NCBI GenBank assembly: GCA_012295275.1
Contig: CM022677.1
Location: forward strand, 1 to 64,000
Direction: 5' to 3'
Origin: Chrysomallon squamiferum
Taxonomy: Eukaryota; Animalia; Mollusca
Length of the DNA stretch: 64,000 bases
Part shown: one piece after another, positions 14,306 to 54,829 of the stretch
Position numbering within the stretch: position 1 is the first letter of the stretch
Layout of the letters: the number at the start of each line of letters is the position of its first letter
Program-made: the position numbers and the translations under genes
Notes under the pieces: generated by a model
The model's input: only the letters and a program-made list of their open reading frames with translations
Told to the model about the DNA's origin: nothing
Databases searched by the model: none

Positions 14306-20836
<6,531 letters not shown>

Positions 20837-21277: not shown

Positions 21278-21357
<80 letters not shown>

Positions 21358-21361
21358 CAAA

Positions 21362-21396
<35 letters not shown>

Positions 21397-21814
21397 ATGT
21401 TTCTACAACTGAACGTAGCGGACTCATGTGGCGTTATAGAGATCACACTGACGCACTAAGACAAGATCGTATGGTAGTCAAGTACAGTAACTATATAACC
21501 GTGTTTCGATAGATACAATAAATAACTATGATGCTAGTTTATGTAATGTGGCTGTTGTAGTACACAGTATTTTTGAATAATTCACTTACTTAAAAAAATA
21601 GCAATACACTACTGCAAATACACAAATATAATTCATTTGTTTTGTTCTGACAACGTTGAACTGTTTACGTCACGTTTCTAAGAACGTATCCAGGATGTTA
21701 AGCAAGGCGTGACAGTTATGGAAATGAACGATGTCGTTTTTATTTATATTTTCTTACTTCCAGGTTGACGATGAATCTCCTGATGAGGAAACAGAAACTT
21801 CAACAAATGTATGC

Positions 21815-21858
<44 letters not shown>

Positions 21859-22986
21859 GAAATAGGAAACTGAGAAGTTGAATGTTCAAGTTGTTGCTTT
21901 GTTTTACAAGTGATAGTTTCCTCAGACACTCGATTTGAAATATCTAGCGAGTGTCTCTCTGTGTTTTGTGTGTGTGTGTGGGTGTGTCAGAGAGAGAATA
22001 CGTGTGTTTTGGTATATATGTGACTGTGTCTGTGTATTTATATGGATGTATGTAAAGGGATATGTCTCATTCTGTGTGTATGTGTGTGTGTATGTGTGTC
22101 CCTGTATGTGTGTGTTTGTGCGAGTGTGTGTATGCGAGTAAAAATGTTGTGAATATATTTTGTTTCCCTCTATGGGTGTATTGAATAGCAATGTTTATTT
22201 AAAAGTCTTTATAATTGTTTCTACATTATATAATTTATCCTTATGAATTTATATATCTGATAGTATAATCTTATATGTTTGTATAGTAACTATTTTTATA
22301 GTTGATGTATATTTGTAAATATTTTCTTTCACTGTACAGGATATTATTACTGTTTATATTTAATGATAGTGTACCACATTGATTACCAAGTTTTATATTA
22401 ATAGGGAAATAGGTTTCTTATTAAAATATGCAAATTTGATGATTCACACTTATAATGTAAATATTCTGCACGTATCTGCATGTTTTGAAACAATCTCTCT
22501 GTCAGTTTCATATTAAAAATATTCAGTTATTTTATAAACATATTGTTTCTCATTAAACATTATTTTAATTATACTTTCCTGTGTTTCTCTTTAAAAACGT
22601 GATGTTCTGTCTGTGTCATATAAATACACATAACAGTTAATGCATTATTCAGATAACTGTCACTATGTGTTATTCTCTCTCTCTGTGTATCTGCCTATAT
22701 CTCTGTTTTTTCCGTCTCTCTATCTGTCTCTGTGTTGACTTCTTTATATATCTTTGTATTTATGTGTATATCACTTAAACTATCAATAATTCAGTCATTT
22801 AATATACATATTTGTTTGACGGGCGGTGTATCTACATATTTGTTTGACGGGCGGTGTATCTACTTATGTATCTCTCAAACTGTTTCAGATATCTCTCTAT
22901 CTGTTTCAGAGTTTACTTTTGTTCGTGTTTCTGTCTGTCGCGTCTTCTGAGTTGGCTGATACAAGACAAATATTACAAAGCATCAA

Positions 22987-23064
<78 letters not shown>

Positions 23065-24971
23065 CCAACAATAATAAATAATAATCAAACAAACAAGTAA
23101 ACATACAAATAAATAAATAATGAATAAATAAATAAATAACATATTTAAACCAACAAACAACAGCTATATAAACAAACACAACAGTTGAAAATATTTGTGT
23201 CTTGTTCAGAGAGCAGATTACAAATTATTTTAACTATCCCAACCACTTCAAAGCCATCAGAATAACGTATATTTTCGGCAACAACAACAACAACGATGAT
23301 AAAGATGATATACAAAAGGAGTGAAATAAAAAAATGATTAAACAAATAAACAATAATATAGACGGAATGAATGATCTAATCGTGTTTGTTATCTGTCTGT
23401 AAATAAGTTAATAAGTAAGTAAATAAAAACTAAATAAATAAATAAATAAACAAAACAAAATAAAATAAAATAAAATACAAATATTGCAAATATAGCTTTC
23501 CAAAATATAATTAATAATCCATTTTTAAAGTAATTTGTTTTAATTTTCCTCGGGCACTAATGCAACTGTCTCTCTCTAAATATAATCCAAATTTCTGTTC
23601 TCCCTTTGACTTTCATTTTCATCTTTTTGTCGCTGTTCTCATTTATTTTAAAACTATTTTAAACAGATCGAGTCTTGACTTTAATTACGCTCTCTCTGTT
23701 ATATTTACTGAACAACATTGTAAACGCGTCACCAGTTGATGGATAAGTACGCTAACGGCGTATACACTCTGCATAACAATAATAGCAATGATGATGATGA
23801 CGACGACAATAAGAACAACAAGAGCAGCAGCAGCAACAACAACAACAACAATAATAATAATAGTTACATAATGACATTTAAAACACTGTAAATGATCAGA
23901 CTGATGAATTGTTTTCGACAGATTAAAAAAACTGGAGGAAGTTGAAGGGTTCAGTTTTGCTTCTAAATATGGTGAACACAACAATCACAATTCACCAGCA
24001 GAGGATTTAGACTCAATTATAGGGGAGTATCACATTTAGAGTCTTGGTAAATCTAAACATGTCATATCAGAACACTGACAGGACAGTGTGGACGGAAATA
24101 ATCTAAAGCCATAATAATAATAATAATAACAACAATAACAATAAAAACAATAGTAGTAATAGTAGCTACAGTAGTAACAATAATGATGATGATGACGATG
24201 ATAATAATAATAATAATAGCAATAATAACAACAATAAGAGTTAGAAGAATATGTAGAAAGATAATAATAATAACAACAACAACAGCAATAGCACCGACAA
24301 CAAGAGAACAACAGAAATATCAAAACAATAACACATTTTTTGAAATTCATATTTTTCTCCCACTCTCCCTGGCATGCAAGTTGTTAGATCCGGTCCTAGT
24401 GTGTTCCTAGTTGTCTTCCTCTTTGTGTCATTGTTTTATTAGAAACAGCAGGAAAGTAGAGACATATCAGTGTTACACTGGCTGTACAGTAACATATCTA
24501 CATACAATACTTTGTTTCATGTGTTTTGCATTTTAAAAAAAATCTTTTTTTTAAATAATATTGTGATTGTTATTTGAGATAAAATGAATCACGTGATTAT
24601 CGTTTTTCTTTTAATGCTTCTTCCTCGTCATTCTTTAGCAGGTTAATAACACATCGTTTATTTATTACTAGTTGTAGTAATAATAGAAGTAATAGTAGTG
24701 TAGTAGTGTTAAAGAGAATAGTAGTATTAGTGGCAGTCGCACTAGTTTTAGACCAAGTAGCAGTTTTGATTATAATGACAGTAGCAGTAGTAGTAGAACT
24801 TTTAGTAGCAGTAACAGCGGCATTAGTAATGGTCATAGCAACATCATAAGTGTCGTGGTAGTAGAGGCAGCTGTTGTTGGTGTGGAAATTGTAGAACTAA
24901 TATGGTAGTAGTGGTTGTTGTATTTTTATAGTTCTACAACCTATTGTTGCCGGAGTAGTCGTAGAAGTAAT

Positions 24972-25042
<71 letters not shown>

Positions 25043-25742
25043 TTTCAGGTTAAACTGAACATGAGAGGAAAAGTAATATTATTATGTTAACATATATGTT
25101 TGAAAATGAATTTTCACGTCGACTTTCTCTGGCTTTCTTTCAATCTTTATTTCCAAAGAATCAACGCGAACGTCAAAATAATAAAATAAAATAAAATAAA
25201 AATGAAAATAAATAAATAAATTTAAAAAAATCATAGAACTATATTTGCTCGTGGGATCTTAACTCTTACATTGTTGTAACTGGACAGACGTAGGAATTGC
25301 ATTCTGTTCCTTAAAGATGAAATTATTTAAATATGTCTCGCACAGTTCTAGTTAGAGAGAAAAAATATATAATTTATATTTATTTATTTATCTATTTATT
25401 TATTTATTTATTTATTTATTGTAGTGAACTGTCATATCTGTATATTTTACGAAGATTATTTTGAAATTTTGCACTGTTATTCTGTGTTTCGTTGAGTTCT
25501 GGAAAGAGGAAATGAAGTTATCGTAGACTGGTGTTTAAGGATAATTTAACACAAGATATGTTAAAACGTTAGCTTGCATCTATAACTGAACATTCTCAGT
25601 GTTTTGATATTCTGTCGCATTTATCTGACAATGAGTTCAACGTCTGTAAACAATATAGTCCTTAGTTGTGGTTTTTTGTTTTCTAAAATACATTTCCTAT
25701 CGTACCTTTTGTAAATAAAATATTGATTACACTTTATTATTA

Positions 25743-25804
<62 letters not shown>

Positions 25805-27576: not shown

Positions 27577-31998
<4,422 letters not shown>

Positions 31999-33810: not shown

Positions 33811-34238
33811 TGATTAATATCTGTCTGTACCCTTTTCCATCCGTTTTATTTTGTTCTTTTCAACAACAATATGAATGTATGTATGTGTGTGTATGTATGT
33901 ACGTATATATATATAACCTGTATGTACGTATATATATATATATATATTATTTATTGTTAGTATTATCATTATTATTACTATCATCATCGTCATCGTCATA
34001 ATCTTTATTTTATTTTATTTTATTTTTATTTTTTTTTTTTTTTATCTTTTTAAATTTTTATTCAGACAATGAACAAACAAAAAATAAAAATGAGCGTGAA
34101 GACGAACATATGTGGTGATAATAACAGTAAAAAAAAAAAAAAGTTTTGTTTTAAATATTTAACGTCTAAGATAACATTTACATGCGCCACGCACGTTCTC
34201 TGACACTTTCCAGTCTGCTGGTTCGGTTCCAGTCAGAA

Positions 34239-34490
34239 ATGGCGTCGTCTCGTCTCTTTCGTTTTCTTTGTGTCGTCGTTCTTTCAGTTGTGATTGATGG
34301 CGAACAAGACCTAACGCGTGAAGAGAAGCAGAAAGGTGACGACGTTGTGACTGCAGTCGTAGATCAGATCAGAGACAACTGCATCTTCTCTCAGGACAGA
34401 CTTTTCTTGCAGCGACTGGTTCTAGTTGAGTCCGATAATGGGGGAGATACAAAAACATACAGAAAAGGGTTTTACGGAGGAATTTGGCAG
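34239..34490 (+). CDS. Signal peptide + first half of N-terminal domain
   Basis: MASSRLFRFLCVVVLSVVIDG-EQDLTREE...RLVLVESDNGGDTKTYRKGFYGGIWQ|gtgaaa. Confidence 0.8.
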
Positions 34491-34625
34491 GTGAAACTTT
34501 ATTTATTTATTTATTTATTTATTTATGTATTTATTTATTAGTGAATTTTATAGAATACGATATAACTTTGTGAAAAATATATATACAAATATAAGAAGAA
34601 ATATACATAATGAAAGAAAAGGAAA

Positions 34626-34666
<41 letters not shown>

Positions 34667-34730
34667 CAATATAGTATCGATTATTTATTCTTATTTAATA
34701 AAAAAAATCAATTATTAAATATTTTTTGAG

Positions 34731-34983
34731 GTTGATGAATCAAAATTCAATGAAACTAATCACTGCCCGCCACCTGTTAGTGTGACGTGTGACAGAATTA
34801 TGACGTCACTCAACATAACATGGCAGCAGGTGAAGTGGAGTGATCTACTAAAACCGCTGTATTCTGGACTGAAGAGTGGGATCAGCATTCCCGGTGACGT
34901 CACAAGCCAAGCGTTGCCGTGGAAACGTATCTACAGCCCGAATGAGTCTGTCGATGTGTTTACACGAAAAGCCGATGTCAATG
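34731..34983 (+). CDS. Second half of N-terminal domain
   Basis: ttttgag|VDESKFNETNHC...ITWQQVKWSDLLKPLYSGL...IPGDVTSQALPWKRIY...ADVN|gttggt. Phase-compatible with both neighbouring exons. Confidence 0.75.
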
Positions 34984-35182
34984 GTTGGTCTTTCTTTCCA
35001 TATCTTTTATTTTAGTAAATAAAAAAATAAGTTAGTAAGTAGATAAAACCTGTGACGCTTAAGCTTTAATATTAAAACCCAGTCGTCCATTTGAAACGTT
35101 TACATCAAGTGAATATTAAAAACACGTTTCACACTGTCTGAGAAATGAGTCGCGGTATTGGCTGCCAGTGTTGTTATTATTA

Positions 35183-35266
<84 letters not shown>

Positions 35267-35556
35267 GTTATTGTTATTTATTTGTTTCATTTTTTTTCTC
35301 TTTCATATTTTTTTTTTTTTTTTAGATAGAATTTTTTAAATTGATATTCTTCTTCTTAAACTGTTTCTATATCTCTCTTTCCCTGTTTTCTCTGTCTACA
35401 TCCTTTTTTTTATATGTTCATTGTTGTTGTTCTTCTTTGTTCTTCTTTTTTTTTTTTTTTTTGGTATTTTTCTGTCTTTGTCATTGTTAAATAAAATTTG
35501 AGAGTATTTATTTATTTCTTTTATGAATTGTTCTTAAACCTCCCTCTCTCCCTCTG

Positions 35557-35740
<184 letters not shown>

Positions 35741-35745
35741 TCTTC

Positions 35746-35777
<32 letters not shown>

Positions 35778-35793
35778 GTTATTATTTTCACAG

Positions 35794-36074
35794 AGACTTG
35801 TAAGACAAATTTAGATTTAGTGTTTATTGTTGATGCGTCGGGCAGTATTGGTGCGCACAACTTTATACGTGTTCAAAACTTTCTCGTTGACGTTGTCCGA
35901 GGCCTCGACATCAGCGCCGACCACACCAGAGTAGCTACCGTCAGCTTCAGCAGTTCCCCGTATGTAGACTTCGACCTTTCAAAGTACAGGAACGTCAACG
36001 GTGTTGTCAATGGAATTAATAACGTGTATTACGACGGGGGAGGTACTAATACAGACACAGCAATCAAAAAATGA
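35794..36074 (+). CDS. von Willebrand factor A domain exon (truncated)
   Basis: cacag|ETCKTNLDLVFIVDASGSIG (MIDAS DxSxS)...TRVATVSFSS...FDL...YDGGGTNTDTAIKK*. Confidence 0.9.
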
Positions 36075-36142
36075 AATATTCGCAGAGAATCACGGAATCC
36101 GAAAAACTCGAAAAATGTTGCCCGGACGTTTAAATTATTTCC

Positions 36143-36482
36143 TTAAATGGTTTTATCAGTCTCAGACCGTAATTTTTTAATAATTTTTAAATGGAGTTAT
36201 CTCTCTTAGACCGTACATTTTTAAATAATTTCCTTATATGGAGTTATCTCTCTTTGACCGTACATTTTTAATAATTTCCTTAAATGGAGTTATCCCTCTT
36301 AGACCGTACATTTTTAATAATGTCCTTAAATGGAGTTATCTCTCTTAGACCGTAAATTTTAATAATTTCCTTAAATGGAGTTATCTCTCTTAGACCGTAG
36401 GATACAAAATATTTTCTTAATTAGAATTACCTCCCTTACATTGTAAAATGTATTAATTTCTCTAAATGGAGTTGTCTCCCAT
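36143..36482. repeat. 46-bp tandem array, ~7.5 copies
   Basis: Unit ttaaatggagttatctctcttagaccgtacatttttaataatttcc. Central copies are conserved and edge copies degenerate. Confidence 0.93.
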
Positions 36483-36546
36483 GCGTCGCAACAATCATAT
36501 AGAGTGGAACAGAACAACACTGTGCAGAATCTTGTAACATTGCAAA

Positions 36547-36552
36547 TTTATT
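36547..36552 (-). terminator. Polyadenylation signal AATAAA of the insert gene
   Basis: tttatt on the + strand, ~110 nt past the stop of the readthrough frame (36665). Confidence 0.55.
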
Positions 36553-36910
36553 AAACTTCAAAAAAAGGATAACACGAACAGAGAATAGATCTTAATAACG
36601 TATAATGTCTCCTGATTTCGTCATCGTTTGTACCACCAGTAGGTCAATAGGAGTGAATTTTTTCTCACTTTGGAACTGCTGTGAAAATATGTCGGTCGTA
36701 ACAAGTCAGTCGTTGTCGAATAGTCTGGTCTAAATTGAGAAAGAAAGAGACCAATGCGAAGCTGAGAAGGAAGAGAACTAATATGAAAAGACAGTAAACA
36801 AACGTCTCGAGAAAGTTCCAAGTGCACTTTCTGAGGATACACGTAGCTGATTGAACGTGGTTTGTGCAACATACGTCGACAGCGTTCTTTTCGTTCTTCT
36901 TCACGCCTAG

Positions 36911-37946
36911 TCAATCTTCATTCATCTGGAAAGAAGAAACGAAAAGTCTGTTAAAAAGAGGGACGTGTGAGTTCAAATGAAATGGAAATAAAAAGGTGAC
37001 GTCTGTGTTGTTGCGTTTCAGAAAACTGAAGGTAACTCACCGTTTCTTCCTCGTTCTTTCTCGACCCTTTTCGTTGTTTTACTTCCGTTTCCTGACTGCT
37101 TGGAAGAAAGTGCTGGAACGTGGTGACCTGTCCGTTCTTTATTTTCTCTGCCCGGTTGGCAGCAGCGGCGTCGCTCCCGGTGGTGTCTGCGGTGGCTGCA
37201 CCAGGACCGGAATGGAAACACTCCTCGCTCCAGTCCGCTACGACACCGTCCTCCGCGACCTCTTCAACCGCGACATCTCCGTCTTTTGGATTCGTCGCTA
37301 CCTCTTTCAGAACGAGAGTGAGATCGACGTCGCACGCTTCGTCGTCTTCGACTCTTCTCCAGCGGTAACCGATCTCCAGTGAGTTCGTACCGAGGGAGGA
37401 GTATCCTCTCTTCGTGTTCTTCACAAACTTCGTGTAGAAGAGAAGATTGCAGACTCTGCGGACGGTGAGTCGCAGACCGCACCTGCCTGCTTCTTTGCTC
37501 AGCGCCTGCAACTCTTTGTCTTCGTAGAGCCTCTTCCGGGCTGGAGCGGTGCAGACGATGTGCAGATTCGAGTACGTTGACCACACCCATGGGTCGTCGG
37601 TGCCTGTGTGCACCACGAGGTTGCTGTGTCGTTTGCCGTCGTCCGAGCCGACCCTGGGTCGGACGTTCGACGTCAGAAAGACCTTGGCTCTGTTCAGGAA
37701 TCGCCTGAGATCTACAGGAAGTTCTTCCAGGTGTTGCAGTTTCGTGCTCCACCTCAACACTGGAACGACGTTCAGGAGGTCTTTGGACACGTACTGAGCG
37801 AATGGGCGACCTTTGGAATCTGTGAAGTTGCAGTTCTTTTGCTTCACCATGACATTGAGATACCTGCGAGAAAACAATTGACCAAGGCGGGAATCTCTCG
37901 CGTGAATTCCCGTTCCAGGACTGACTATCAAACTGTAGTAAGGCAT
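36911..37946 (-). CDS. Insert gene: ~306-aa protein of unknown function (possible HUH/Rep-like fold + acidic tail), extendable to ~388 aa by readthrough to 36665
   Basis: ATG at 37946 (A at -3), open for 302 codons to a GTGAGT donor at 37040. A 115-nt intron ends ttttcgtttcttctttccag. Exon 2 from 36925 reads ATG AAT GAA GAT TGA CTA G. Confidence 0.7.
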
Positions 37947-38009
37947 CTTGCTTGTCTTCTCTCTCTTGCAGATTTCTAAAATCACGTCCTTCTTCTCCCG
38001 AAGACACTA

Positions 38010-38170
38010 CAATAATGAACGAAACTACTCCGTCCTAATTTTTTATATACTATTTTTTTTTTTTTACAGTCAGTCAGTGATTGGTCTCAGTGAGTCAATG
38101 TACCACATGTTACGAGAGCTACGTCACTTCCGGTTTGCAATCTCATGAAATTGTGGTGTGACGTCACGGC
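38010..38170 (-). promoter_or_regulatory. Compact Pol II promoter of the insert gene
   Basis: CRE palindrome GTGACGTCAC 38158-38167, ETS-CRE composite CCGGAAGTGACGT 38121-38133, AP-1 TGACTCA 38091-38097, CCAAT 38080-38084, TATATAAA 38042-38049, Inr-like TCATT 38014-38018. All are in the correct order and orientation for the ATG at 37946. Confidence 0.75.
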
Positions 38171-39011
38171 GGAAAAGAATGACTTCAAAATGTGGGGTTT
38201 TTTAAACTTCGAGCCCGTCGTAAAGGAAAACAAAGAAAGTACGTTCTTCTCTTCGTAATCGACCCCTCCCCTCTTCGGGCGACTCGACTGGAGGCTCCCT
38301 CCATTCTGACGTGCAACGATGTCTTCTCTCTGAACACGAAGGATTCCGGTACGACCGCCGTTTCGAAGACGTTTCGAAGGCGTCTCCGGCGGAGATGTTG
38401 TCCTCGTCGTCCATGTCGGAAGTTTGAGTTCCGACCGATACCGTCGCTGGGGGGTCTCTGAGTTCGAACACGCATCGTCGTACCTCCTCCGCCCATCTCT
38501 CGCATCGAAAACCACAACGTAGCACCTATGTCAGTTGGACATTACAATCATCATCATTATCATCATCACCAACATCTTGAGAATCTTCATCCTTACAATA
38601 ATCATCAGGATCATCAATATCATTATCATCATTATCTTCATTACTTTATGTAATACAAAACAGACATTGTTTGTTTGTTTGTGTGTATATGTGTCTGTAT
38701 GTGTGTGTGTGTGTCTGTTTGTCTGTCTGTCTATACGTTCTATTGTTACTGACAGGTTTGGAAGTCGTGTGCAGAGAACACGGAACTGAGCGGGAATATA
38801 CGAAGCTGGATTTTATGATGAGTAAATACAAAAAGTATCTTAGTACAGGTAATTATTTGTATACCTCTATTATTTTTTTGTTGTTGTTGTTGTTTTTTTG
38901 TTGTTTTTTTTTTTTTTTTTTTTTTGTTGTTGTTTTTTTTTTTTAAATTATTATTATTTTATTATTATATTGTATGTGTGTGTGCAAATTGATTTGAAAA
39001 ATATTCTACAG

Positions 39012-39449
39012 ACGTCAAACAATAAAATAAAAATAAAGAAAGCACCTCCATCCAACGTTTCTAATCCGTGCACTCCGGAAAAGAATGTGAACGGCAACGT
39101 CTTTTTTTTCTCATATCCACCAGACAAACGTAAATTCATTTACTGCGACTCGTGGGGTTACGCTCACTTACTGTCCTGTCGCCATGGAGATATCTGGTAC
39201 CAGAACGCTCAGATGTGCTCTCTTTACGTCGCAACGAACTCTCCCGGAAACGGAACTAGTTCTCTTGATTACAGTCTTCTGTGTTCCCAAGGCGGTGAAT
39301 TCTACCATCATCCAAGCGATCCGCACAAATACATCAACTGCGGCCCTGACGGCTTCTACTACGTACAGGCGTGTCCCATTCACGTGGTTTTTGACATCAG
39401 AGATCGTGCTTGCGTCCGTCAACACGACATCGGAACAGTTATTGGCTAA
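39012..39449 (+). CDS. Terminal exon with two chitin-binding type-2 (peritrophin-A/CBM14)-like domains
   Basis: NPC...FFSYPPDKRKFIYCDSWG...SCRHGDIWYQNAQMC and LC...YHHPSDPHKYINCGPDG..YVQACPIHVVFDIRDRACV. Ends GTVIG*. AATAAA follows at ~39477 and ~39528. Confidence 0.82.
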   Translation, partial: TSNNKIKIKKAPPSNVSNPCTPEKNVNGNVFFFSYPPDKRKFIYCDSWGYAHLLSCRHGDIWYQNAQMCSLYVATNSPGNGTSSLDYSLLCSQGGEFYHHPSDPHKYINCGPDGFYYVQACPIHVVFDIRDRACVRQHDIGTVIG

Positions 39450-39562
39450 CCCTTCGTGCATTTCTTCACATGATGTAATAAATTTGTTTTGGTTGTATGA
39501 TGATGGTAATTACGATGCATTTAACACAATAAAATGATGGTAAGATCTCACAGAAACAAAAT

Positions 39563-39596
<34 letters not shown>

Positions 39597-40151
39597 AAAC
39601 ATTATTATTATTTTTATCATCATCATCATTAATTTATTTATTTAATTATTTGTTCATTTATTTATTTATTTATTTTCTTTCTAAATATATTTTTGTAAAA
39701 CAACATAACTAAGGGAATGTTTTCAAATTCAGTTAATTAATCAGTCAATAATAAATAAATAATAAAGAATGAAAGAAAGAAAGAAAGAAGAAAAGAAGAA
39801 ACAGATATAGAAACAAAACTCAATTGATTAATATTCTACTTGTCTAAATATCTGTAATACTAAATAATTTTGAATTACTGATTATGTATATATGTATATT
39901 ATTTTTTGTGTTTGTTTGTGTGTCTTTGTCTGAGCGTTATATAACAGTTACGTGGATATTTTTTCTTGTTCTTTTTCTATTCATCTTTTATCCTCCCAAC
40001 CATGATTCATAATAGTCTGCGGTTATTTGATTTGTTCTTTTATTCATTCATCTGATAATTCTTCCATTTATCATACATCGATCCATTCATTAGTTATGTT
40101 CTCAAATGTTTTCATTCTTCATTCTTCCATTCATTATTTCTATCGTTTCAG

Positions 40152-40466
40152 TTCACCCTGTACTCGTGGATTCTTCAAAACAAAATAATTTTGTCGTGGC
40201 TCATCTAGGACAAACAGTCTTCTTAAACAAAATTGTTTTCTCCCGTTCCAACACTGTCTCTGAACAAAAAGGGAAATGTTAACAAGGAAACATCAGCAGT
40301 GTTGACGTTGCTGTAAACATCCACAACGTGAAGGTGAAGTGTACTCGATACGTGATGTCATCTTTATTTCGTTACGCTAACAAAAGTGATATTGGAAAGC
40401 ACGTGCTTACCGTGTTTGTAACCAGTTTAAATGGGACTACTTTTTTTACCAGACTTGTCACAGTGG
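40152..40466 (+). pseudogene. Decayed membrane-proximal Ig-like exon
   Basis: tttcag acceptor and gtgagt donor, phase 1-1: HPVLVDSSKQNNFVVAHLGQTVFLNKIVFS...C*QGNISSVDVAVNIHNVKVK...KSDIGKHVLTVF...NGTTFFTRLVTV. One stop at 40280-40282. Confidence 0.55.
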
Positions 40467-41249
40467 GTGAGTTAGTCAGAAAATATAAAATTACATTTGT
40501 AATATCGTTATATTAGTAACTGTTGACGTCGTAGAAGTTGTAGCAGTAGAGATAGTTATAAAAGTTGAACAAACATTAAAATGAACGGGCTGTGACAGAA
40601 ATAATGTAATAGTTGTCGCAGTTGTAATGTATTGATAGTAGTAGTAGTAGTAGTAGTACTAGTACTAGTAGTAGTAGTAGTATGATGCTTGAACCAACTT
40701 TTTTTGTTAGTGGTGATAGTTGTAGGACTGGTAATGATAATAATAATAATAATTATTATAATAATAAAGTGAAATCAATATTTTATTTACAAAAGGTATG
40801 ATAGGAAATGTATTTTAGAAAACTAAAAACCACAACTAAGAACTATATTGTTTATGGATGTTGAACTCATTGTCAGATAAACGCGACAGAATCTCAAAAC
40901 ACTCATAATGTTGAGTTATAAAAGCAAGCTAACGTTTTAACATATCTTGTTTTAAATAATCCTAAAACACCAGTCTACGATAATATCATTTCCTCTTTCC
41001 AGAACTCAACAAAACATAGAATGATAGTGCAAAATTTCAAAATAATCTATGACAATTCACTACAATAAATAAATAAATAAGTAGATAAATAAATAAATAT
41101 AAATTTTATATTTTTTCTCTCTAACTAGAACTGTGCGAGTCATATTTAAATAATTTCATCTTTCGGGAAATTGAATGTAATTCCTACGTCTGTCCAGTCA
41201 CAAAAATGTAAGTGATAAGATCCCACGAGCAAATACAGTTCTATGATTT

Positions 41250-41324
<75 letters not shown>

Positions 41325-41508
41325 TTTTTTTTTTTTTTTTTTTATTATTATTATTTTTTTTTTTTTTTTTTTTGACGTTCCCGTTGATTCTTTGGAAATA
41401 AAGATTGAAATAAAGCCAGAGAAAGTCGACGTGAAAATTCATCAGATATATTAACATAATAATATTACAATCACGTACTTTTCCTCTCATGTTCAGTTTA
41501 ACCTGAAG

Positions 41509-41551
<43 letters not shown>

Positions 41552-42486
41552 ATTACTCCTACGACTACTCCGGCAACAATAGGTTGTAGAACTACAAAAA
41601 GTATAATAACCACTACTACGATATTAGTTCTACAATTTCCACACCAACAACAGCTGCCTCTACTACCAGGACACTTATGATGTTGCTAAGACCATTACTA
41701 ATACCGCTGTTACTGCTACTACAACTTCTACTACTACTGCTACTGTCATTATAATCAAAACTGCTACGTGTTCTAATACTACTTCTACTACCACTAATAC
41801 TACTATTATCTCTAACACTAGTACACTCATATTACTTCTATTATTACTGCAACTAGTAATAAATAAACGATGTGTTATTAACCTGCTAAAGAATGATGAA
41901 CAAGAAGCATTAAAAGAAAAACGTTAATCGCGTGATTCATTTTATCTCAAATAGCAATCACAATAGTATTAAAAAACCAAACATTTTAAAATGCAAAACA
42001 CATGAAAGAAAGTATTGTGTGTAGATATGTTACTGTACAGCCAGTGTAACTCTGATATGTCTCTAATTTCCTGCTGTTTCTAATAAAACAATGACACAAA
42101 GAGGAAGATAACTAGGAACACACTAGGACCGGATCTAACAACTTGCATGGCAGGGACTTAGGGAGAGTGGGTGAAAAATATGAATTTCTAAAAATTTGTT
42201 ATTGTTTTGATACGTGTTGTTCTTTTGTTGTTGGTTCTATTGTTGTTGTTGTTGTTGTTATTATTATTATTAATATTATTGGTGTAGATTGTCTCGTTAC
42301 ATATTCTTCTAACTCCTATTGTTGTTATTATTGCTATCATTATTATTATTATCATCGTCATCATCATCATTATTGTTACTACTGCAGCTACTACTACTAT
42401 TGTTGTTGTTGTTGTTGTTGTTCTTCTTCTTCTTCTTTTTTATTATTATTATCATTATTATTTTTATTATTATTATCATTATTATC

Positions 42487-42555
<69 letters not shown>

Positions 42556-43607
42556 GTTATTATGGCTTTAGATTACTTCCGTCCACATTGTCCTGTGTTC
42601 TAATCTGACATGTTCAGATTTACAAATGTTTTACTCCCCTATGGTATGAGTGTAAATCCTCTCCTGGTTGTACTGTCATTGTTATGTTCACCATGTTTAG
42701 AAGCAAAACTGAACCCTTCAACTTCCTACATTTTTTTAAATCTGTCGTAAACAATTCATCAATCTGATCATTTACAGTGTTTTAAATGTCATTATGTAAC
42801 TATTATTATTGTTGTTGTTGTTGTTGTTGCTGCTGCTGCTCTTGTTGTTCTTATTGTCGTCGTCATCATCATCATTGCTATTATTGTTATGCAGAGTGTG
42901 TACGCCGTTAGCATACTTATCCATCAACTGGTGACGCGTTTACAATGTTGTTCAGTAAATATAACAGAGAGAGCGTAATTAAAGTCAAGACTCGATCTGT
43001 TTAAAATAGTTTTAAAATAAATGAGAACAGCAACAAAAAGATGAACATGAAAGTCAAAGGGAGAACAGAAATTTGGATTATATGTAGAGAGAGACAGTTG
43101 CATTAGTGCCCGAGGAAAATTAAAACAAATTACTTTAAAAATGGATTATTAATAATATTTTGGAAAGTTATATTTGCAATATTTTTATTTTATTTTATTT
43201 TATTTTATTTTGTTTTGTTTATTTATTTATTTTTTATTTACTTACTTATTAACTTATTTACAGACAGATAACAAACACGATTAGATCATTCATTCCGTCT
43301 ATATTATTGTTTATTTGTTTAATCATTTTTTATTTCACTCCTTTAGTATATCATTGTTATCATCGTTGTTGTTGTTGTTGCCGAAAACATACAAGTTATT
43401 CTGATGGCTTTGAAGTGGTTGGAATAGTTAAAATAATTTGTAATCTGCTCTCTGAACAAGACACAAATATTTTCAAGTGTTGTGTTTGTTTATATAGCTG
43501 TTGTTTGTTGGTTTAAATATGTTATTTATTTATTTATTCATTCATTATTTTTTTATTTTTTTGTTTGCTTGTTTGTTTGATTATTATTTATTATTGTTGG
43601 TTTATTA

Positions 43608-43656
<49 letters not shown>

Positions 43657-44624
43657 TTGATGTTTTGTAATATTTGTTTTGTATGAGCCAACTCAGAAGA
43701 CGTGACAAACAGAAACAGGTAGAGAGATATCTGAAACAGATAGACAGATACATAAGTAGATACACGGACCGACACACAAATATATAGATTAAATGACTAA
43801 CTTACTGATAGTTTAAGTGATATACAGATACATACAAGGATATATAAAGAAGTAAACACAGAGACAGATAGAGAGACGGAAAAAACAGAGATATAGGCAG
43901 ATACACAGGAAGAGAGAAAAACACATAGTGACAGTTATCTGAAGAATGCATTAACTGTTATGTGTATTTATATGACACAGACAGAACATCACGTTTTTAA
44001 AGAGAAACACAGCAAAGTATAATTAAAATAATTTTTAATGACAAACAATCTGTTTATAAAATAACTGAATATTTTTAATATGAAACTGACAGAGAGATTG
44101 TTTCAAAACATGCAGATACGTGCAGAGTATTTACATTATTAGTGTGAATCATCACATTTACATATTTTAATAAGAAACCTGACTATTTCACTATTAATAT
44201 AAAACTTAGTAATCAATATGGTTCACTATCATTAAATATAAACAGTAATAATATCCTGTGCAGTGAAAGAAAATATTTACAAATATACATCAAGTATAAA
44301 AATAGTATACAAACATAAAAGATTACACTATCAGATATATAAATTCATAAAGATAAATTATATAATGTAGAAACAATTATAAAGACTTTTAAATAAACAT
44401 TGCTATTCAATACACCATAGAGGAAAAAAGAAAAGAAACAAATATTCACAAATTTTTTGCTCGCATACACACACTTTCACGAACACACACACATTCAGAG
44501 ACACGCACAAATACACACACATATACACACAGACTGAGACATATCCCTTTACATACATTCATACAAATACACACACAGAAACATACATACCGAAACACAC
44601 GTATTCTCTCTCTGACACACGCAT

Positions 44625-44678
<54 letters not shown>

Positions 44679-44836
44679 CACAGAGTTACACTCTCGCCAG
44701 ATATTTCAAGTCGAGTGTCTGCGGAAACTATCACTTGTAAAACAAAGCAACAACTTTAACATTCAACTTGTCAGTTTACAATGAACGCAGTCCCGTTGTT
44801 AATCCTTATTGCTTATTATTATTATTATTATTATTA

Positions 44837-44882
<46 letters not shown>

Positions 44883-45349
44883 GCCTGTATTTGTTGAACT
44901 TTCTGTTTCCTCATCAGGAGATTCATCGTCAACCTGGAAGTAAGAAAACATAAATAAAAACGACATCGTTTATTTGCGTAACTGTCAGGCCTTGCTTAAC
45001 ATCCTGGATACGTTCTTAGAAACGTGACGTAAACAGTTCAACGTTGTCAGAACAATACAATGAATTATATTTGTGTATTTGCAGTAGTGTATTGCTTTTT
45101 TAAGTAAGTGAATTATTTAAAAACACTGTGTACTACAACAGCCACATTATATAAACTAGCATCATAGTTATTTCTTTTATCTATCGAAACACGGTTATAT
45201 AGTTACTGTACTTGACTACCACATGACAATCAGCAAAACCGATCTTGTCTTAGTGCGTCAGTGTGATCTCTATAACGCCACATGAGTCCGCTACGTTCAG
45301 TTGTAGAAACATTTATTAATTAATTAATTAATTAATTTATTAATTTTAT

Positions 45350-45423
<74 letters not shown>

Positions 45424-45838
45424 GTGTATTCGATCAGACGGCCTCTAAACAACGTATCACTTTGTACATAATATATTCGTTTACATGCATTTGTGTATGT
45501 GTGTGTATGTGTACGTGGTATATGGACTTGTGGAAAATGTATGTTTCTATTATTTGTATTTAATAATGATAATACTGACATTAAATAAATGAATAATTAG
45601 GAAACATATTAATATAAGAGTAACGATTAATACTAGCTAACAGATGAAGACTAAAGAAGAAAGAGGAAGAAAAAACTAAAAGAAAAGAAGAGAAAATAGA
45701 ACAAAACAAATCAAAACGAAGACGAATGAAGTAAAGTAAAAATAAAAATAATAAATTATTTAAAGACGAAGGCTAAATAAGAAAGTGGAAGATGGAAAAA
45801 ACACAAAGGAAAGAAGTAAAATGTAACGTATCAACTTA

Positions 45839-46230
45839 CTACTTCTTAACTTTTTTGACTTCAGTGTACAAGTTGTTGATATCAACTGTTTGATCTTCTG
45901 TCTGTGTTTTAGTTTTTTCGTTCACTTTTCTAACCTGTGTGTACAAACAGGACACGTCTTCCATTTCGGCTTTCCCACAATTCCCTGGTTCTCGTTTAAC
46001 TGTGTTTACCTGTGAGTACAAATCTGAAACCTCAACCTCCGCTATGTGGCTTCCTGTTTGACCGGATGTTGGCGCCGATTTATTTCCCTTTTTCGGAAGT
46101 GCATACAGAGCATCCATTGCTTCGGCTTGAGCTGTGTTTGTAGTGGTTGCCATGGAATTCTTGTCTTCGGGGACATCGTACTGAGCTTCACTCACAACGT
46201 TGTTCTCACCAGCACGTAAAACTGTAACAT
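45839..46230 (-). CDS. Receptor B terminal cytoplasmic exon
   Basis: About 12 differences in 130 aa versus copy A. All five Tyr motifs of this exon are retained. Confidence 0.8.
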
Positions 46231-46339
46231 CTTCCAAGAGAGAGAAAACAACTTAAACCTTGTAACAACAACAAAAACAACGACAACAACAGCTAAACAA
46301 AAGAGGGGAAAATATATGTGAAATAAGAAATATCCGTTT

Positions 46340-46380
<41 letters not shown>

Positions 46381-47102
46381 TATCTTCATCTTCATCATTA
46401 CAGTTATTATCGTTATTATTATTATTACTAGTAGTAGTAGTAGTAGCAATGGTAGTGGTAGATGGAGCAGTTGCATAGTGAATGTAGTAGTGGGAGTGGT
46501 AGTGATAGCAGTAATAGTAACAGTGGTGGTAATAGTAATAGCAATAGTGATAGCAGTAGTACTACTAGTAGTCATACCAGTGTAAAATATGTTGTCGTTG
46601 TAATCGTATTACCTGCATGATTTGAAGAACTGGGTGAAACAAAGTAGAGTTCATTGTCAAACATAACTGTACAAAAAAGAAATAAAAAGCACTACAAATA
46701 AACAACCCATTTCTGTATGTATGTATGTATGTATGTATGTATGTATGTGTGTATGTATGTATATATGTATGTGTGTGTGTATGTGTGTGTGTGTGTGTAT
46801 ATATATATAAATGTTGCCATTTATCAAGCTACTATACAACATTTGCCATGTGAACTTTCTAAAAGAGACTTGTTTACAGAAAAATGCAACTAGTATTTGT
46901 TCAAACATGAAATACGTTTTTTTTAAATAGAATACATTCATTAGTTTCACTTTGTGAAGTTTTCACTTACTTTCATTTTCCTCCACGTGGCTGTGGACAG
47001 CAGCAGCTTGGCTGCCTGTTTAATAAAAAAAAAAAAAAAAAAAATAAAAATATTTCTTTCTTAGAAATTACTCGTTAGTACTACAACAGAAGAACGGCTA
47101 CA

Positions 47103-47277
47103 TTAAGCACTATCAGATTACGTAATGACATTAACGACTATCAGATTACGTAATGACATTAATGACTATCAGATTACGTAATGACATTAATGACTATCAG
47201 ATTACGTAATGACATTAATGACTATCAGATTACGTAATGACATTAAGGACTTTCAGATTACGTAATGACATTAAGGC
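47103..47277. repeat. 28-bp minisatellite, ~6 copies (arm B counterpart of 18981-19578)
   Basis: Unit actatcagattacgtaatgacattaatg. Confidence 0.9.
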
Positions 47278-48617
47278 AAATTACACAAATTCAACAAAAC
47301 AGACAAAATAATAAAACAAACCGCATCTGTTTTCCAGATTTCGTAATGACATCATTGCTCCGCTGTTTGTAATGATATGAGTTTATCTTTTACAAATTAA
47401 TAAAATACAACAAAACAGACAAAATAATAAAACAAACTGCATCTGTTTTCCCTTTCTAGTCCGTGCCCCACTGTTTGTCAAGTGATATGAGTTTATCTTT
47501 TACTACTTTGTTAGTTCACAGCGTCCTAGCCGTAACAGGAAGTTTCATCTCGTTTTATGTGTGACTCTTGACAATAATACTATGTCAGAAATTTCTCTAG
47601 ATATAAAAAGATCGATTCAGTCCTCACGTTTTCCTCTATTTATTTTTCCCTTTACATTCCTTTAGACTTTCCTTTCTTCCGTTATTAACTTGTCAAATCA
47701 TTTCGTTTATTCCATTTATGTCCTCCCAATATTAATTACCTTCTTCTTCATTTGTTCTACCATCTAGTCATATATTCATTCAGTCTATTACACTTTTGTT
47801 CATTCGTTATTTCTCACCTGAAAGACAGGATCTAAAGACAGGGAAGGTTTTAGTTTGTTAGAATTTAACTAAAAAGTCTCTACACTTACTTTTACTCTTG
47901 GTTCGTTTGACGATGCACACAGTTAAAATTACAACGACAAGAACGAGAATCACTCCTGACACAGAACACGAAACAACGACAATCATAAACCAACTCTTTT
48001 TATCTGTGAATTTAAAATAATGTTCACATCTTTGTTAACTGTATATTATAAACAAAATAACGATGATGATAATGACGATGTAAAATAATGAAATAAACAA
48101 GTAAACAATTAAATAAATGAATAATAACAGAAACAAGAGTAATAGAAATGTAAGTGTATGTATCAGTTTGCATATTTTTACGTGTGTGCTTATCTGTGTA
48201 TCTATGTGTACATGTGTTTTTGTGTTCTGGCCTGTCATTTTATTTATAAAAGAAAAGAAAACGAACAAAACATATAGATACATGCAAATACAAATTTATT
48301 TTTAGATAAAATCAGAGATCTGTTATATGTTTACAATGTTCTGTAATGAATCAAAGATTGAATTAATTACATAAGTAATTAAATTAATCAGACAGGTAAG
48401 AACAGGTATCCACACGTAGGTTACATTTACCGATATAAGCTGTATTTAAGATAAAGTATTGTGTACCATCATTAAATATATTCAGTGATAAAAAACAGAA
48501 ACAAGTATTTAAGATAGTTATGTTATAATATCTGTTAATTCTTTTCTCTCTCTCTCTCTCTCTCTCTGTGTGTATATACATACACACGAGACAGAGAGAG
48601 ACAGAGAGAAAGAGATA

Positions 48618-48749
<132 letters not shown>

Positions 48750-49341
48750 TGATCAGATATGTAATAACTCACATGTATTTCTTTGTGGTATGTACGTATA
48801 TATTTATGATTTCATACGAGTGTGTGAATGTGTGTGAGTGTGTGTGAGTGTGAGTGTGTTAGTGTGTGTGTTTGTGTTTGTGCGTGTGTTTGTGTGTGTG
48901 TGTGTGACGAGCTCTGCTTAATTTGATGTTTCAGTTTTAAGTATATTTACTATTATTGTCTGTATGAGTCACAACACTTTCATTCGGTGTCGCTTTTTTC
49001 TTTGTAGATTCCACAGAATTTTCTTCACGTGTAGGTAGCTTCGTGATTTTGTGGGAGGAAACAGTAGGTGTACCCGTGTCGTTGTTATCTGACGTCACAG
49101 TTGTTTCGTTTGACGTAATAGGGTTCGTTTCTGGTGTCTGGCCTGAAGAAGTAAATAATTTAAACAATTTAATTAATAAACATTGAATGTTCTTATGTTG
49201 ATAGCAGATGCAGCACAACCCATATAACTGTTCTTGCCATTGCTGTTATTACTATCGTCATCACTTTTGATCAATTTCATATTTAAATAAATAAATAAAG
49301 TACAAAACAACAACAACAACATAATAATAATAATAATAATA

Positions 49342-49380
<39 letters not shown>

Positions 49381-49838
49381 TAGCGTTACTGTGTGAAAAT
49401 GTCACTGGCTAATATATAAGTTATTGCTGATATGCATTTATCGTCGACTTCACTGTACTACTACTAATATCTCCGGCACTGCGTTTGCTACTGTCACTAC
49501 ATCTATTACTAGTATTACTTATATTAACAGTAACACTACTGTTACACTATCACTTCTACTGATACTACCAAAGCTGTTATCACCACTAGTGTTATTTCTA
49601 TTACAAGTATTGATTGTGCTAATGTTACCACTATTATAAGCACTGCTACAACTATTACTGTCAATATTACTACTACTGTTACTGCTACAATTACTACGCA
49701 TACTACTAATAATAATACTACTACTACTACTAATAATGATGATGATGATAATAATAGTAATAATAATAATAATGATACTACTACTACTTCTACTAGTACT
49801 ACTAATAATAATGATAATAATAATAGTACAGTACTTAC

Positions 49839-50183
49839 GTGTTGGTGTAATGGGGTTGCTCTTATATTTATCACTGCTGCATGTCCATCTCTTAGAATTG
49901 TTCATAGAAATTGAAGATACTCTCAAACTGTAACTCGTTAAATAACTTTTCACTGTATTTAAAGTTTTATTTCTTGTTTGTACAAACTTACATCCGTATT
50001 TTTCTGTCGAACTTTTGTGTATGTTACATGTTTGTGTTTTATATGTACATGTACAAATGGTCTCATACCCTCGCTTAAATGCGATATCTTCTTTATAAAT
50101 ATTTCCAATAACAGAACAAACAAATGTGAAAGTTTGATTGATGACAGCCGTCCAGGAATACAGTGCTAAACCAGGATTTATAG
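49839..50183 (-). CDS. Receptor B Ig-like domain 2 exon (open, highly diverged)
   Basis: INPGLALYSWTAVINQTFTFVCSV...YSLRVSSISMNNSKRWTCSSDKYKSNPITPT, with intact splice sites and all 6 Cys. Confidence 0.8.
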
Positions 50184-50191
50184 CTGAAATA

Positions 50192-50226
<35 letters not shown>

Positions 50227-52837
50227 ATAGTAATAGTAGTATTTTTAGTAGTATTAGTATTAGTAGTAGTAGTAGTAATAATAATAATGTATTTCTATAT
50301 TTAGTAATGAACAATAAACTATAGTATTATTATAGATTGAACAGCAGAACAACAACAGTTCTAGAATTTTTAAATATTGTTCACTAAAACTTTAAAAATT
50401 GCTGTTAGAATTGTTCCTGTACGTCCTTTTATATTTGATTTTGAAAACTCTGTCGAGTTACAAGATGTTAAGATAATTTGTTTTCATAATAAATCAATAA
50501 TATTGAAACAAAATAAAGAAATAAATAAATAAAAAGAAACTGTAATATAATAGTGAACACACGCGTTCAATGACAATTCTGAAATGAACATGAAATTGTC
50601 AAATTAAGACCAACCAAAGTGGCACAAGTGGACGACAACCTGATTATATTAAAGAAAACAGCAGAACACCGCGAAAATAAGTAAATTAATAAAAATAAAT
50701 TAACCAGGAAAGGTAACAGAATCAACAGATTTTAAGAGGAGGTGGACATAAGACATTTTGACTGCAGTTAAACCTTAGTTAAAATTCATATTAGATGATT
50801 TAAAGTTTTTAACAATCACATATCTTACTTCTTTACATTGTTTTAATATACATTATTATATTAATGTATATATATTCTATGTGTACTGAAGATTAATCAT
50901 ACGGTGAGTTTACGAGGGTTAATAATTTACGTTCAGTATTTCCCTGGACTTTAGATGCTTTCTCCACCCCTGTTAGACCGTAAAATCGAAGGTAAAAAAA
51001 GAATAAAAATAAGATTAATATATGTCCAGATTAGATATAGAAATATATATTCACCCTCAACTGTCGTCAGTCCACAGCAAAAATATATTTGACTCTGATA
51101 GCACTTGTAAATAACATAAATATAACGAAATTACGCCTTTTGTGTTACTTCATTAATTAATGAATATTTTATTTATTTATTTTTTTTTTTATTTAGTTTA
51201 TATATTTTACAAAGTACATCAAATTAGCTTCTGGTTTAATATGTTAAGTTGATAGTTATCCACAAAACCAAACTTCTTCATTTCAAAAAAATGAAGTTAT
51301 AAAATTATAGTTTTTAACACTACTGTCATTGTTTAGAACATCAGCCCTAAACTGGACGTAAAGAAAGTTCAGTAACTTACACGTAGTCTCCTCTCTGTAC
51401 ACAGTCACACACACACACACACATTTATTTATTATACACACACACATATATTCACAAACACACACACACACAAACATATACACACACACACACACAGACA
51501 CACGCACACACACATAATGAAAATAAAAAACAATCTAAAAAACAATGAGAACAGGTGACATAATTAGTCAGTGAGTTGAAGAGGAGTCGCACAAGTCTAA
51601 AGTTCAGTGACTGCAGTTAAACTTGTAAATATTTATACTTGATGATTTCTTAAACCTTTCTTAAGGATCAAAGTTGTCATATCTTTATACTGTTTTTTAT
51701 ATCTCTGTGTTCTTACATTATTATGTTACTGTATTATATAGCTGTTATGTGTACTGAAGTTTAATCATTCGGCACATTTTTTAGTTAATATTTTCCCGAT
51801 CCTGACATTTTCCGGACTGGTGCTCCCGCTACTAGTCCATAGAATTGAGGGTCAACAGTGTTTCCAAATTTTAGTTTTATTTATACCAATGTATTACTTT
51901 TTATAAATAAAGTGAAATAATACATAAAGTGAAAAACTCTTTGTAAAAGTTTTATGAATATATAAAATAAATGAATAAATTTGTACGCAATTTTGAATAA
52001 AAAATATATGAATAAAATAATTTCGTTTCCATTTTATTTATTTATTTTATTTGTGTTTTTTTATATATATTTGTTTATTACAATATTTGTTTATTTATTT
52101 ATTTGTTTATTTATTTGTTTGTTTGTTTGCGTGTTTAAGAAAGTACATTTCAAAAAACTTACAAATTACAGCAACTTATGGTTCAGTCCACATTTCAAGT
52201 TGATCAGATCCACAAAACCAGACTCCAGCGTCATCTTCAGTGGTCTGATGTTTATAAACTGTGTAATCTTTGTAGTCGCTGTTAGCTTTGTTTGTCTTAG
52301 CACTGACAAATGTAACTTTGTGTACTGTTACAGCTACACGTGTCTCCTCTCTGTACACAGTCACACACTGTAGTGTTATCAGTTTGTGTTTTGTGTACAA
52401 ACTTTATATCAGAATTCAGATTCTGTGACTCGCGTACTCGACACGTAATAAACATCGTACCACCTTTTAGTACAGGTATCACGTTCAGTAATTCAAATTT
52501 TGCACCTAGAATAATACGGAATAATAATTACTTTAATTACTCAAATAATAGAATGAATAATAGAATGTTTCAGATAATAAATTAAAATCAATGTTTATTG
52601 AAAATCGCACAGAAACAAAGCATTTAAATTAACATTTAATTAATTAAACTAATTATTAAATAATAATAATAATAATAAGAATAATAATAATAATAATGAT
52701 GATAATGATAATGATAATGATAATAAAATAAATGAATGAAAACAAATCAAATGAAATAAAATAAAATAAAATAAAATAAAATAAAAGTCTGTAAATAGTT
52801 TTAATGTCCTACCGACCGGAACACACACGCACACATT

Positions 52838-52986
<149 letters not shown>

Positions 52987-53399
52987 ACATAGATGCATGC
53001 ATATATGCTCAGAGAATGTGTGTGTTTGCTACAAAGAATATGTATAATCCATGAAATTTTCAGTTGTATGTGTAATGTCCGATTCACTCAAGAATTATAT
53101 ATGATACCTGAAACTGTTTTATCTTTTTCTGTATCATTGTAATTAAGTTTTCCCATTCTCTTGGTAACATATAACAAACAAATTTGTCTTTGAACTGAGA
53201 GTGTTTAAGTAGCGACCTGGCACTTATCTTGACAAATGTTATTATTTGAAGTAACAGTAAGAAGGACAGTGAATAGTTAATTAAACAGTTTTAGTGTTTG
53301 GATTACAACATTATTCCATTATTTCACACTTTCAGATAATTTGTCAGCTTAATGTTATCTTAGGTCTTGTTTTATTTATTTTTCTTCTTTTGATAGCAG

Positions 53400-53438
<39 letters not shown>

Positions 53439-54204: not shown

Positions 54205-54287
<83 letters not shown>

Positions 54288-54288
54288 G

Positions 54289-54335
<47 letters not shown>

Positions 54336-54337
54336 AA

Positions 54338-54634: not shown

Positions 54635-54829
54635 GTAAGTATATTAATATTACTACATTGTACAAACAACTATTTATTCAAAACTATTTATATATTCATT
54701 TGTTGTTATTAATTTATAGTTATTATTTATTACACATTTATTTATTAATTAGTGATTTATTTATTCATTCATTTATTTGTTCATTATTAATTTATTGTTT
54801 CAAGTAGTCTCTTATTAACTTGGTTTGCA

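Follow-up and report, generated by a model that had tools for sequence, protein, structure and literature searches.

Does the stop codon of a short minus-strand gene in the mollusc Chrysomallon squamiferum end its protein, or do some ribosomes pass it and add a membrane anchor? The gene lies in the first 64,000 nucleotides of contig CM022677.1 (assembly GCA_012295275.1; forward strand, hereafter the window). An initial annotation, made from the letters and their open reading frames, had proposed that a UGA-CUAG readthrough signal lets one transcript yield a soluble protein and a membrane-anchored isoform, with a simple nonsense mutation in a decaying gene as the alternative.

The layout on which this proposal was built is borne out. 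The open reading frame runs on the minus strand from an ATG at 37946 to 37041 (302 codons, ending in EET), and the predicted splice, MNED-TGA-CTAG, the 81 open codons and the AATAAA are all present (Table 1). The isoform lengths of 306 and 388 aa were also recovered when recomputed for the predicted spliced mRNA. The putative promoter stretch contains what we take to be a CRE-like palindrome (GTGACGTCAC at 38167), what we take to be an ETS-like site (CCGGAAGT at 38133) that overlaps a TGACGT at 38126, and a presumed TATA element, TATAAA, at 38047. Directly upstream of these motifs lies a GC-rich, acidic 107-codon stop-to-stop frame (38202-38525, minus strand), possibly an exon located upstream or one more relic.

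Table 1. Features of the gene and its surroundings, in positions of the window.
Feature	Position	Strand	Basis
Spliced antisense RNA	37424..38848	+	Run X1, one contig each, depth 3-5
Promoter-like stretch, putative	38042..38167	-	Motif scan
Exon 1, residues 1 to ~205, parvoviral NS1-type nuclease/origin-binding domain	37332..37946	-	Sequence and model comparison
Exon 1 linker, acidic, low-confidence in the model, basic patch KQRKGSRK at its end	37041..37331	-	pLDDT
Predicted intron, phase 0, 115 nt	36926..37040	-	Splice signals
MNED, four codons ahead of the stop	36914..36925	-	Translation
TGA-CTAGGC, candidate readthrough signal	36905..36913	-	Motif
In-frame extension, 81 codons: cysteine-rich stretch, one hydrophobic helix, 23-residue tail	36668..36910	-	Translation and hydropathy
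Predicted transmembrane helix, extension residues 40-58	36737..36793	-	Hydropathy
Second stop, TGA	36665..36667	-	Translation
AATAAA, predicted poly(A) signal, 112 nt past the second stop	36547..36552	-	Sequence
46-bp tandem array that separates the 3' end of the gene from the broken vWA exon	36129..36478	.	Sequence

Origin of exon 1

The initial annotation had overlooked the parvovirus NS1 origin of the upstream exon. A full scan with exon 1 (HMMER, 1.84 billion representatives) gave two protein matches, P0001 and P0002, each 27% identical to it. P0001 (668 aa, E 1.8e-8) matches via its first 235 residues, bears a Parvo_NS1 helicase behind the matching part (E 1.3e-16) and has AAV Rep as its best solved relative; P0002 (204 aa, E 2.2e-7) consists of the same domain as exon 1 without more. 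The structural model of exon 1 was built on a three-row alignment that includes P0001 and P0002, and is hence not fully independent of them; its confidence is low (mean pLDDT 50.6), with values below 50 for residues 204-302. Against BFVD, all four of its matches at E<=0.001 are Parvoviridae non-structural proteins (best E 1.9e-7). In the PDB, nothing reached E<=0.001 with Foldseek; the AAV origin-binding domain ranked 2-4 there without significance. The best VIA-align match of this model (Z 6.5) is an unrelated fold, and the nuclease domains of RepB, circovirus Rep, B19, AAV5 and MVM stand at Z 4.9-6.3, amid unrelated folds. The model of P0002 (pLDDT 51.8) has no PDB match at Z>=5 and finds three Parvoviridae proteins again, only at E 0.005-0.013. 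In an atlas search, exon 1 scored low (best 0.79), while residues 1-215 of P0001 reached Rep/HUH-type clusters at 0.83-0.86, which we use as a lead only.

Further relatives were sought in several collections. A word-indexed protein search with exon 1 gave none among 1321 candidates; with the three-row alignment it gave none among 4577 candidates near its length and P0001 only among the 7993 longer ones scored. Viral contigs gave none in 4 stretches with P0001 and none in 109 with the alignment. Metagenome contigs gave none in 262 with exon 1 and no occurrence of a 21-base pattern spanning the stop. The protein and metagenome-contig searches gave no homologue from another animal.

An HUH motif and a catalytic tyrosine are described as features of active parvoviral NS1 (PMC13308288). 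In the three-sequence alignment, exon 1 retains a single histidine of the HUH pair (H129). Where P0001 and P0002 both have the tyrosine, it has a different residue (position 174), with a tyrosine three residues earlier. Given these degenerate columns, the domain is likely unable to nick, as far as three sequences can tell. It should also be noted that P0002, encoded on a contig of 3180 nt, keeps both motif columns and stops directly behind the nuclease domain; it may be a single exon from a viral or host gene that is spliced.

The helicase half is absent from the window: P0001 matches the window in tblastn at its residues 4-200 only. Pfam places no family on exon 1, the extension, the overlapping 98-codon and 256-codon frames or the upstream 107-codon frame. 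A second copy of the gene was not found within the window, nor a terminal hairpin-like inverted repeat in 35900-39600. The gene is embedded in host DNA, between vWA and CBM14 exons and microsatellites, and contigs of a further sequencing run, X2, span the same exon, intron and flanks. Taken together, and judged by sequence, exon 1 is an endogenous parvoviral fragment that comprises the N-terminal nuclease/origin-binding domain and linker of NS1 and has lost the helicase. On the same comparisons, the locus belongs with endogenous parvoviral elements and not with active parvoviral NS1.

The window as a whole is AT-rich DNA with long microsatellites. It contains a large inverted duplication (11998-25769 versus 40732-57001; pieces 80-94% identical, the longest 5052 nt), and the viral gene sits in its central spacer of about 15 kb. 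On one side of the gene is a vWA exon (Pfam E 8.6e-22) of a secreted-type gene at 34182-36105 (plus strand). This exon is 8 nt shorter at 36069 than its X2 versions and breaks off near 36105, where an RNA contig of run X1 continues in a different sequence. The viral gene is followed by a CBM14 exon (E 1.8e-7; about 39010-39449, plus strand). It may be that the viral gene and the array broke up a vWA-chitin-binding gene, and an X2 depth of about 100-135 over the vWA and CBM14 parts suggests that the whole block is multi-copy. Elsewhere, twin frames at 20522-20836 (plus) and 45839-46153 (minus) carry four tyrosine motifs each (ALYAL, DLYSQV, CLYTQV, NLYTEV), which we take to resemble inhibitory receptor tails. 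Cysteine-spaced exons at 14353, 16534, 28201-28743 and 31395-31754 presumably resemble Ig, and Pfam gives no Ig match. A 372-codon frame of a 90-bp tandem repeat at 2629-3747 (minus), with copies about 99% identical, is probably a satellite open by chance.

Stop codon context, extension and copies

The TGA at 36913-36911 is followed by CTAG at 36910-36907, and the context extends further than had been reported, to TGA-CTAGGC. TGA-CTAG sits inside the predicted last exon and is therefore independent of the exact donor. UGA-CUAG is the best-known leaky stop signal. Counting both strands, the window has 2451 TGA triplets, of which 6 precede CTAG and a single one CTAGGC. Genes with a nonsense codon are numerous in a genome, and at about one TGA in 400 a handful of them should show this context by chance; the present one was chosen for its motif.

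The nine bases UGA-CUAGGC are identical to those of OPRL1, Ross River virus and Getah virus, which are reported to have this context in common (PMC4132726). Readthrough is given as about 31% for OPRL1 (PMC4132726), as 6.4% for OPRL1 in a measured range of 0.5-6.4% (bioRxiv 10.64898/2026.07.14.738498), and as at least about 1.3% for the UGA-CUAG motif (PMC13517186); all of these measurements come from human cells. Four human UGA-CUAG genes are described as read through, with 12 nt on the 3' side being enough and a conserved structure unneeded (PMC4132726). At the present locus, no stimulatory stem-loop was found 3' of the stop in the three stretches folded (z = 0.56, -0.24 and 0.92). A purine is reported to be favoured directly before the stop (PMC4132726); the base here is U. 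Among the 23 human genes that end in UGA-CUAG, a coding signature is reported in 4 only (PMC4132726).

The strong hydrophobic helix claimed for the extension is evident: the best Kyte-Doolittle mean over 19 residues is 2.96, at extension residues 40-58. The maximum in exon 1 is 0.63, indicating no hydrophobic helix there, and the arrangement of a tail anchor (a sole helix near the C-terminus) is found in the predicted long isoform only. When the 3' region was shuffled 4000 times with its dinucleotides preserved, 39 shuffles stayed open for 81 codons and none of the 4000 also contained a helix as hydrophobic; therefore, this is not a chance frame in a 3' UTR. GC content by codon position in the extension is 0.44/0.33/0.49, versus 0.34 in the UTR, and resembles that of neighbouring exons. 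The extension is coding or formerly coding.

Copies of the region are present in X2, a run of unstated kind in which the intron is unspliced and whose contigs lose rare variants. An X2 contig of depth 108.7 covers 36833-36914 with two differences, neither of them in TGA-CTAG, and overlaps both copy classes of this run (depths 29.2 and 80.9). At least the major X2 path therefore carries TGA-CTAG. The class of depth 29.2 matches the window through the intron; its last two exon bases differ, with GTGAGT and the phase retained. The commoner class, of depth 80.9, agrees with the window from the exon as far as 36961; past this point about half of the letters match (15 of 30, allowing a 1-nt shift). 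The similarity stops where an intron interior would begin, just upstream of the branch-like site, which speaks for the predicted intron. The exon upstream of this major class is unseen, so the NS1 origin concerns the exon 1 of the window. Directly ahead of its stop, the major class carries a glycine codon of a kind (other than GGA) that is reported to drop readthrough to background in human cells (bioRxiv 10.64898/2026.07.14.738498). Among the matches listed, three of the four long X2 contigs over exon 1 differ from it in length by multiples of three (6, 21 and 33); the fourth lacks 28 nt, a difference that would put it out of frame.

Over the extension, X2 shows 15 substitutions (5/2/8 by codon position), no indel and no new stop. 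Seven of the 15 changes are silent versus 3.8 expected from base-matched permutation (P=0.051), an excess that is borderline and in which alleles are mixed with paralogues. The other five frames have no silent excess (P 0.29-0.99); the overlapping 98-codon frame, considered as the selected one, was rejected (5 of 15 silent, P=0.37). The three amino-acid changes within the helix are all hydrophobic-to-hydrophobic. The two copy classes differ from each other at 10 of 138 extension bases, half of them silent, without indel or further stop. The second stop at 36665 is a sense codon in an X2 contig of depth 101, which would lengthen the tail by 7 codons, and a 7-nt deletion at 36553 in X2 leaves the AATAAA intact. 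Divergence is lower in the 3' UTR, where about 265 nt show 5 substitutions and 1 indel, than in the extension, with 15 substitutions in 243 nt. This contrast points to patchy homogenisation; the stop could have been spread in this way after the silent changes arose.

The initial annotation had looked to homologous copies for an invariant TGA-CTAG and a conserved extension. TGA-CTAG is present in both X2 copy classes, which are closely similar and come from contigs that lose rare variants; the extension shows a borderline silent excess, without indel or new stop, and an unshared second stop. Together, the shared stop and the silent excess raise readthrough above its chance prior, although not decisively.

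Predicted splice, transcripts and alternative explanations

The donor, GTGAGT at 37040 in phase 0, has the top score among donors in 36900-38300. The acceptor, CAG at 36926, is preceded by 20 nt with 90% pyrimidines, and a branch-like TTAAC lies at 36954-36950, 25 nt upstream of it. These signals lead us to predict a splice from 37040 to 36926. Past this acceptor, all three frames stop within five codons. The AG near 36948, named in the initial annotation as an acceptor that would undo the model, is unlikely to be used because by standard splicing rules it is too close to the branch point. As a candidate it was rejected also in that it offers no escape from stopping, since all three frames end within a dozen codons behind it.

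None of the three RNA runs has a contig over 36662-37423, the stretch with the intron, the stop and the extension; the libraries are tiny (depth 3-5), with X3 and X4 lacking usable cover. That no RNA contig lies on the intron, and that the spliced RNA seen is antisense, both count against the reading with two isoforms. One joint in X1 connects 37424-37463 to 38755-38848, followed by a loose end that matches an acceptor at 40152; the other connects 37815-37937 to 38074-38196. Both are GT..AG on the plus strand, opposite to the gene, and overlap exon 1. The antisense RNA (37424-40152, plus strand) has at least two intron patterns over the viral exon and the promoter stretch, and skips the CBM14 exon.

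We give about an even chance to a co-opted endogenous parvoviral gene that produces a 306-aa soluble protein and, via readthrough, a minor 388-aa tail-anchored isoform. The original proposal of soluble and anchored isoforms is partly supported. In its favour are the UGA-CUAG motif, an extension that is both open and hydrophobic, a stop that recurs in a second copy class, the negative SECIS search and, at a borderline level, the silent excess; the nonsense alternative still stands against it. In the proposed mechanism, an exon with the NS1 N-terminal domain and linker would be spliced onto a last exon bearing UGA-CUAGGC. A few percent of ribosomes would pass the UGA and make the 388-aa form, while the rest would make the major soluble protein of 306 aa, consisting of the viral origin-binding domain, the acidic linker and the basic patch, which perhaps acts as a nuclear signal. 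The single C-terminal helix would anchor the long form in such a way that its viral domain faces either cytosol or nucleoplasm. For all this we infer sense transcription, the splice, readthrough and membrane insertion with that topology. In the most speculative step, the nicking-deficient domain might retain its affinity for NS1 or for the origin DNA of parvoviruses and serve as a decoy, free in the nucleus as the short form and tethered at a membrane as the long form; the idea of a decoy is taken from the analogy with degu DeRep. That a mollusc has such a nicking-dead NS1 decoy, with an OPRL1-type leaky stop setting the ratio of soluble nuclear to membrane-tethered protein, we regard as unlikely.

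Other explanations have to be weighed against these isoforms. A nonsense codon in a once-continuous, membrane-anchored NS1-domain gene, inherited or spread by conversion and followed by CUAG by chance, is possible though doubtful. The product would then be a truncated soluble protein or the locus a young pseudogene, with any readthrough being unselected leakage. This reading needs no new assumptions for the long open frame, the helix or a composition like that of exons, and the patchy similarity of the copies, the unfavourable codon before the stop and the unshared second stop are what a decaying, recombining region would give. The probably frameshifted X2 version of exon 1 and the adjacent broken vWA exon fit decay as well. 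What it meets with difficulty is the rarity of CTAG, and above all CTAGGC, behind the TGA triplets of the window, and the presence of the stop in both X2 classes even though their extensions have diverged from each other, half silently and without indel. Rather unlikely, in our view, is a locus that is not translated as modelled. The viral fragment would then serve mainly as a template for antisense RNA in small-RNA defence, with intron retention or a silent gene, and the hydrophobic frame would be the relic of an exon. Both RNA joints are antisense, have consensus splice sites on the plus strand and lie over exon 1; the unspliced frame meets a plain stop at 331 aa; and for invertebrates an involvement of densovirus-derived elements in RNAi has been mentioned (PMC7737747). 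Nevertheless, at the RNA depth available absence of cover proves nothing, the 302-codon frame is open with X2 length changes that mostly keep the frame, and the promoter-like motifs, splice signals and poly(A) signal are all on the minus strand.

Two further possibilities concern the stop itself. The membrane form could arise by alternative 3' splicing past the stop, at an AAG at 36899, 36896 or 36887 (or later at 36827 or 36806). Each of these AGs preserves the frame of exon 1; they would leave 77, 76, 73, 53 or 46 codons including the helix, and selection on the extension would be explained without readthrough. However, the three near AGs have 15-35% pyrimidines upstream compared with 90% at 36926, they sit behind three closer AGs, and the OPRL1-type context is left unexplained; we consider this explanation less probable still. 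A UGA read as selenocysteine, for which an in-frame UGA and then a long open frame in the last exon would be expected as seen here, is hardly credible. The SECIS search suggested by the initial annotation disfavours it, with no SECIS among the 10 Rfam matches at E<=10 in 35800-39200 and nothing from a simple pattern in 36300-36910. In addition, the 3' regions fold worse than shuffles, and there is no selenoprotein-like domain.

Significance and comparison with known systems

The co-opted parvoviral genes on record come from a few rodents and aphids. Should the gene with two isoforms be real, a gene made from the nuclease half and a membrane anchor past a leaky stop would be a new design of virus-derived host gene, in which programmed readthrough switches the location of a co-opted viral gene product. 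It would also offer an antiviral candidate that can be tested, in animals that lack adaptive immunity, and would extend UGA-CUAG readthrough to molluscs, as lophotrochozoans, with a whole membrane anchor being added. No paper was found that combines an endogenous parvoviral element, readthrough and a membrane, which is weak evidence as most subscription journals were outside the search. Within the same scope, we found no paper on UGA-CUAG readthrough with a transmembrane extension, and no title on a mollusc readthrough gene among the matches listed.

Parvovirus-related sequences as such are already known in molluscs (PMC5013282, PMC11357303). Among invertebrates, the pea aphid genes Apns-1 and Apns-2 and the NS1 elements of sea stars likewise derive from densovirus NS1 (PMC10926426, PMC7737747), and the aphid pair is reported to have a host function (PMC10926426). 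As described there, the aphid and sea star relics keep the Walker-box helicase part and are without nuclease motifs, whereas the present locus kept the opposite half. Degu DeRep (EPV-Dependo.43-ODegus) is alike in being a co-opted Rep; it is reported to be nuclear, to bind viral DNA and to lower MVM replication (PMC10384997). According to the same source it is wholly viral and retains nuclease and helicase, while here the helicase is lost and the nuclease motifs are degenerate.

With respect to the stop, UGA-CUAG is also found in OPRL1, OPRK1, AQP4, MAPK10, MDH1, LDHB and alphaviruses (PMC4132726, PMC4615788). The absence of a 3' structure here parallels the mammalian UGA-CUAG genes (PMC4132726), unlike alphavirus-type readthrough, which has such a structure; a stem-loop was not found in the stretches folded here. 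The vertebrate genes are described as conserved across vertebrates, with measured readthrough (PMC4132726, PMC4615788), whereas here there is one species and an extension of 81 codons with a predicted membrane anchor. The vertebrate extensions reported are short (13 residues in MAPK10) or are peroxisomal signals (PMC4132726, PMC4615788).

The guinea pig genes enRep-M9l/enRep-Myo9 share with the present locus, as predicted here, a 3'-truncated rep with an N-terminal Rep domain, spliced to non-viral exons and giving two isoforms (PMC12300724; bioRxiv 10.1101/572735). They differ in having five myosin-9-like exons and alternative splicing, with RNA and protein seen (PMC12300724). Here, by contrast, a single orphan exon in an invertebrate, known from sequence alone, carries its predicted membrane helix past a candidate leaky stop. 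By analogy with these systems, we propose that the gene combines a truncated rep fusion of the enRep-M9l kind with recoding of the OPRL1 type.
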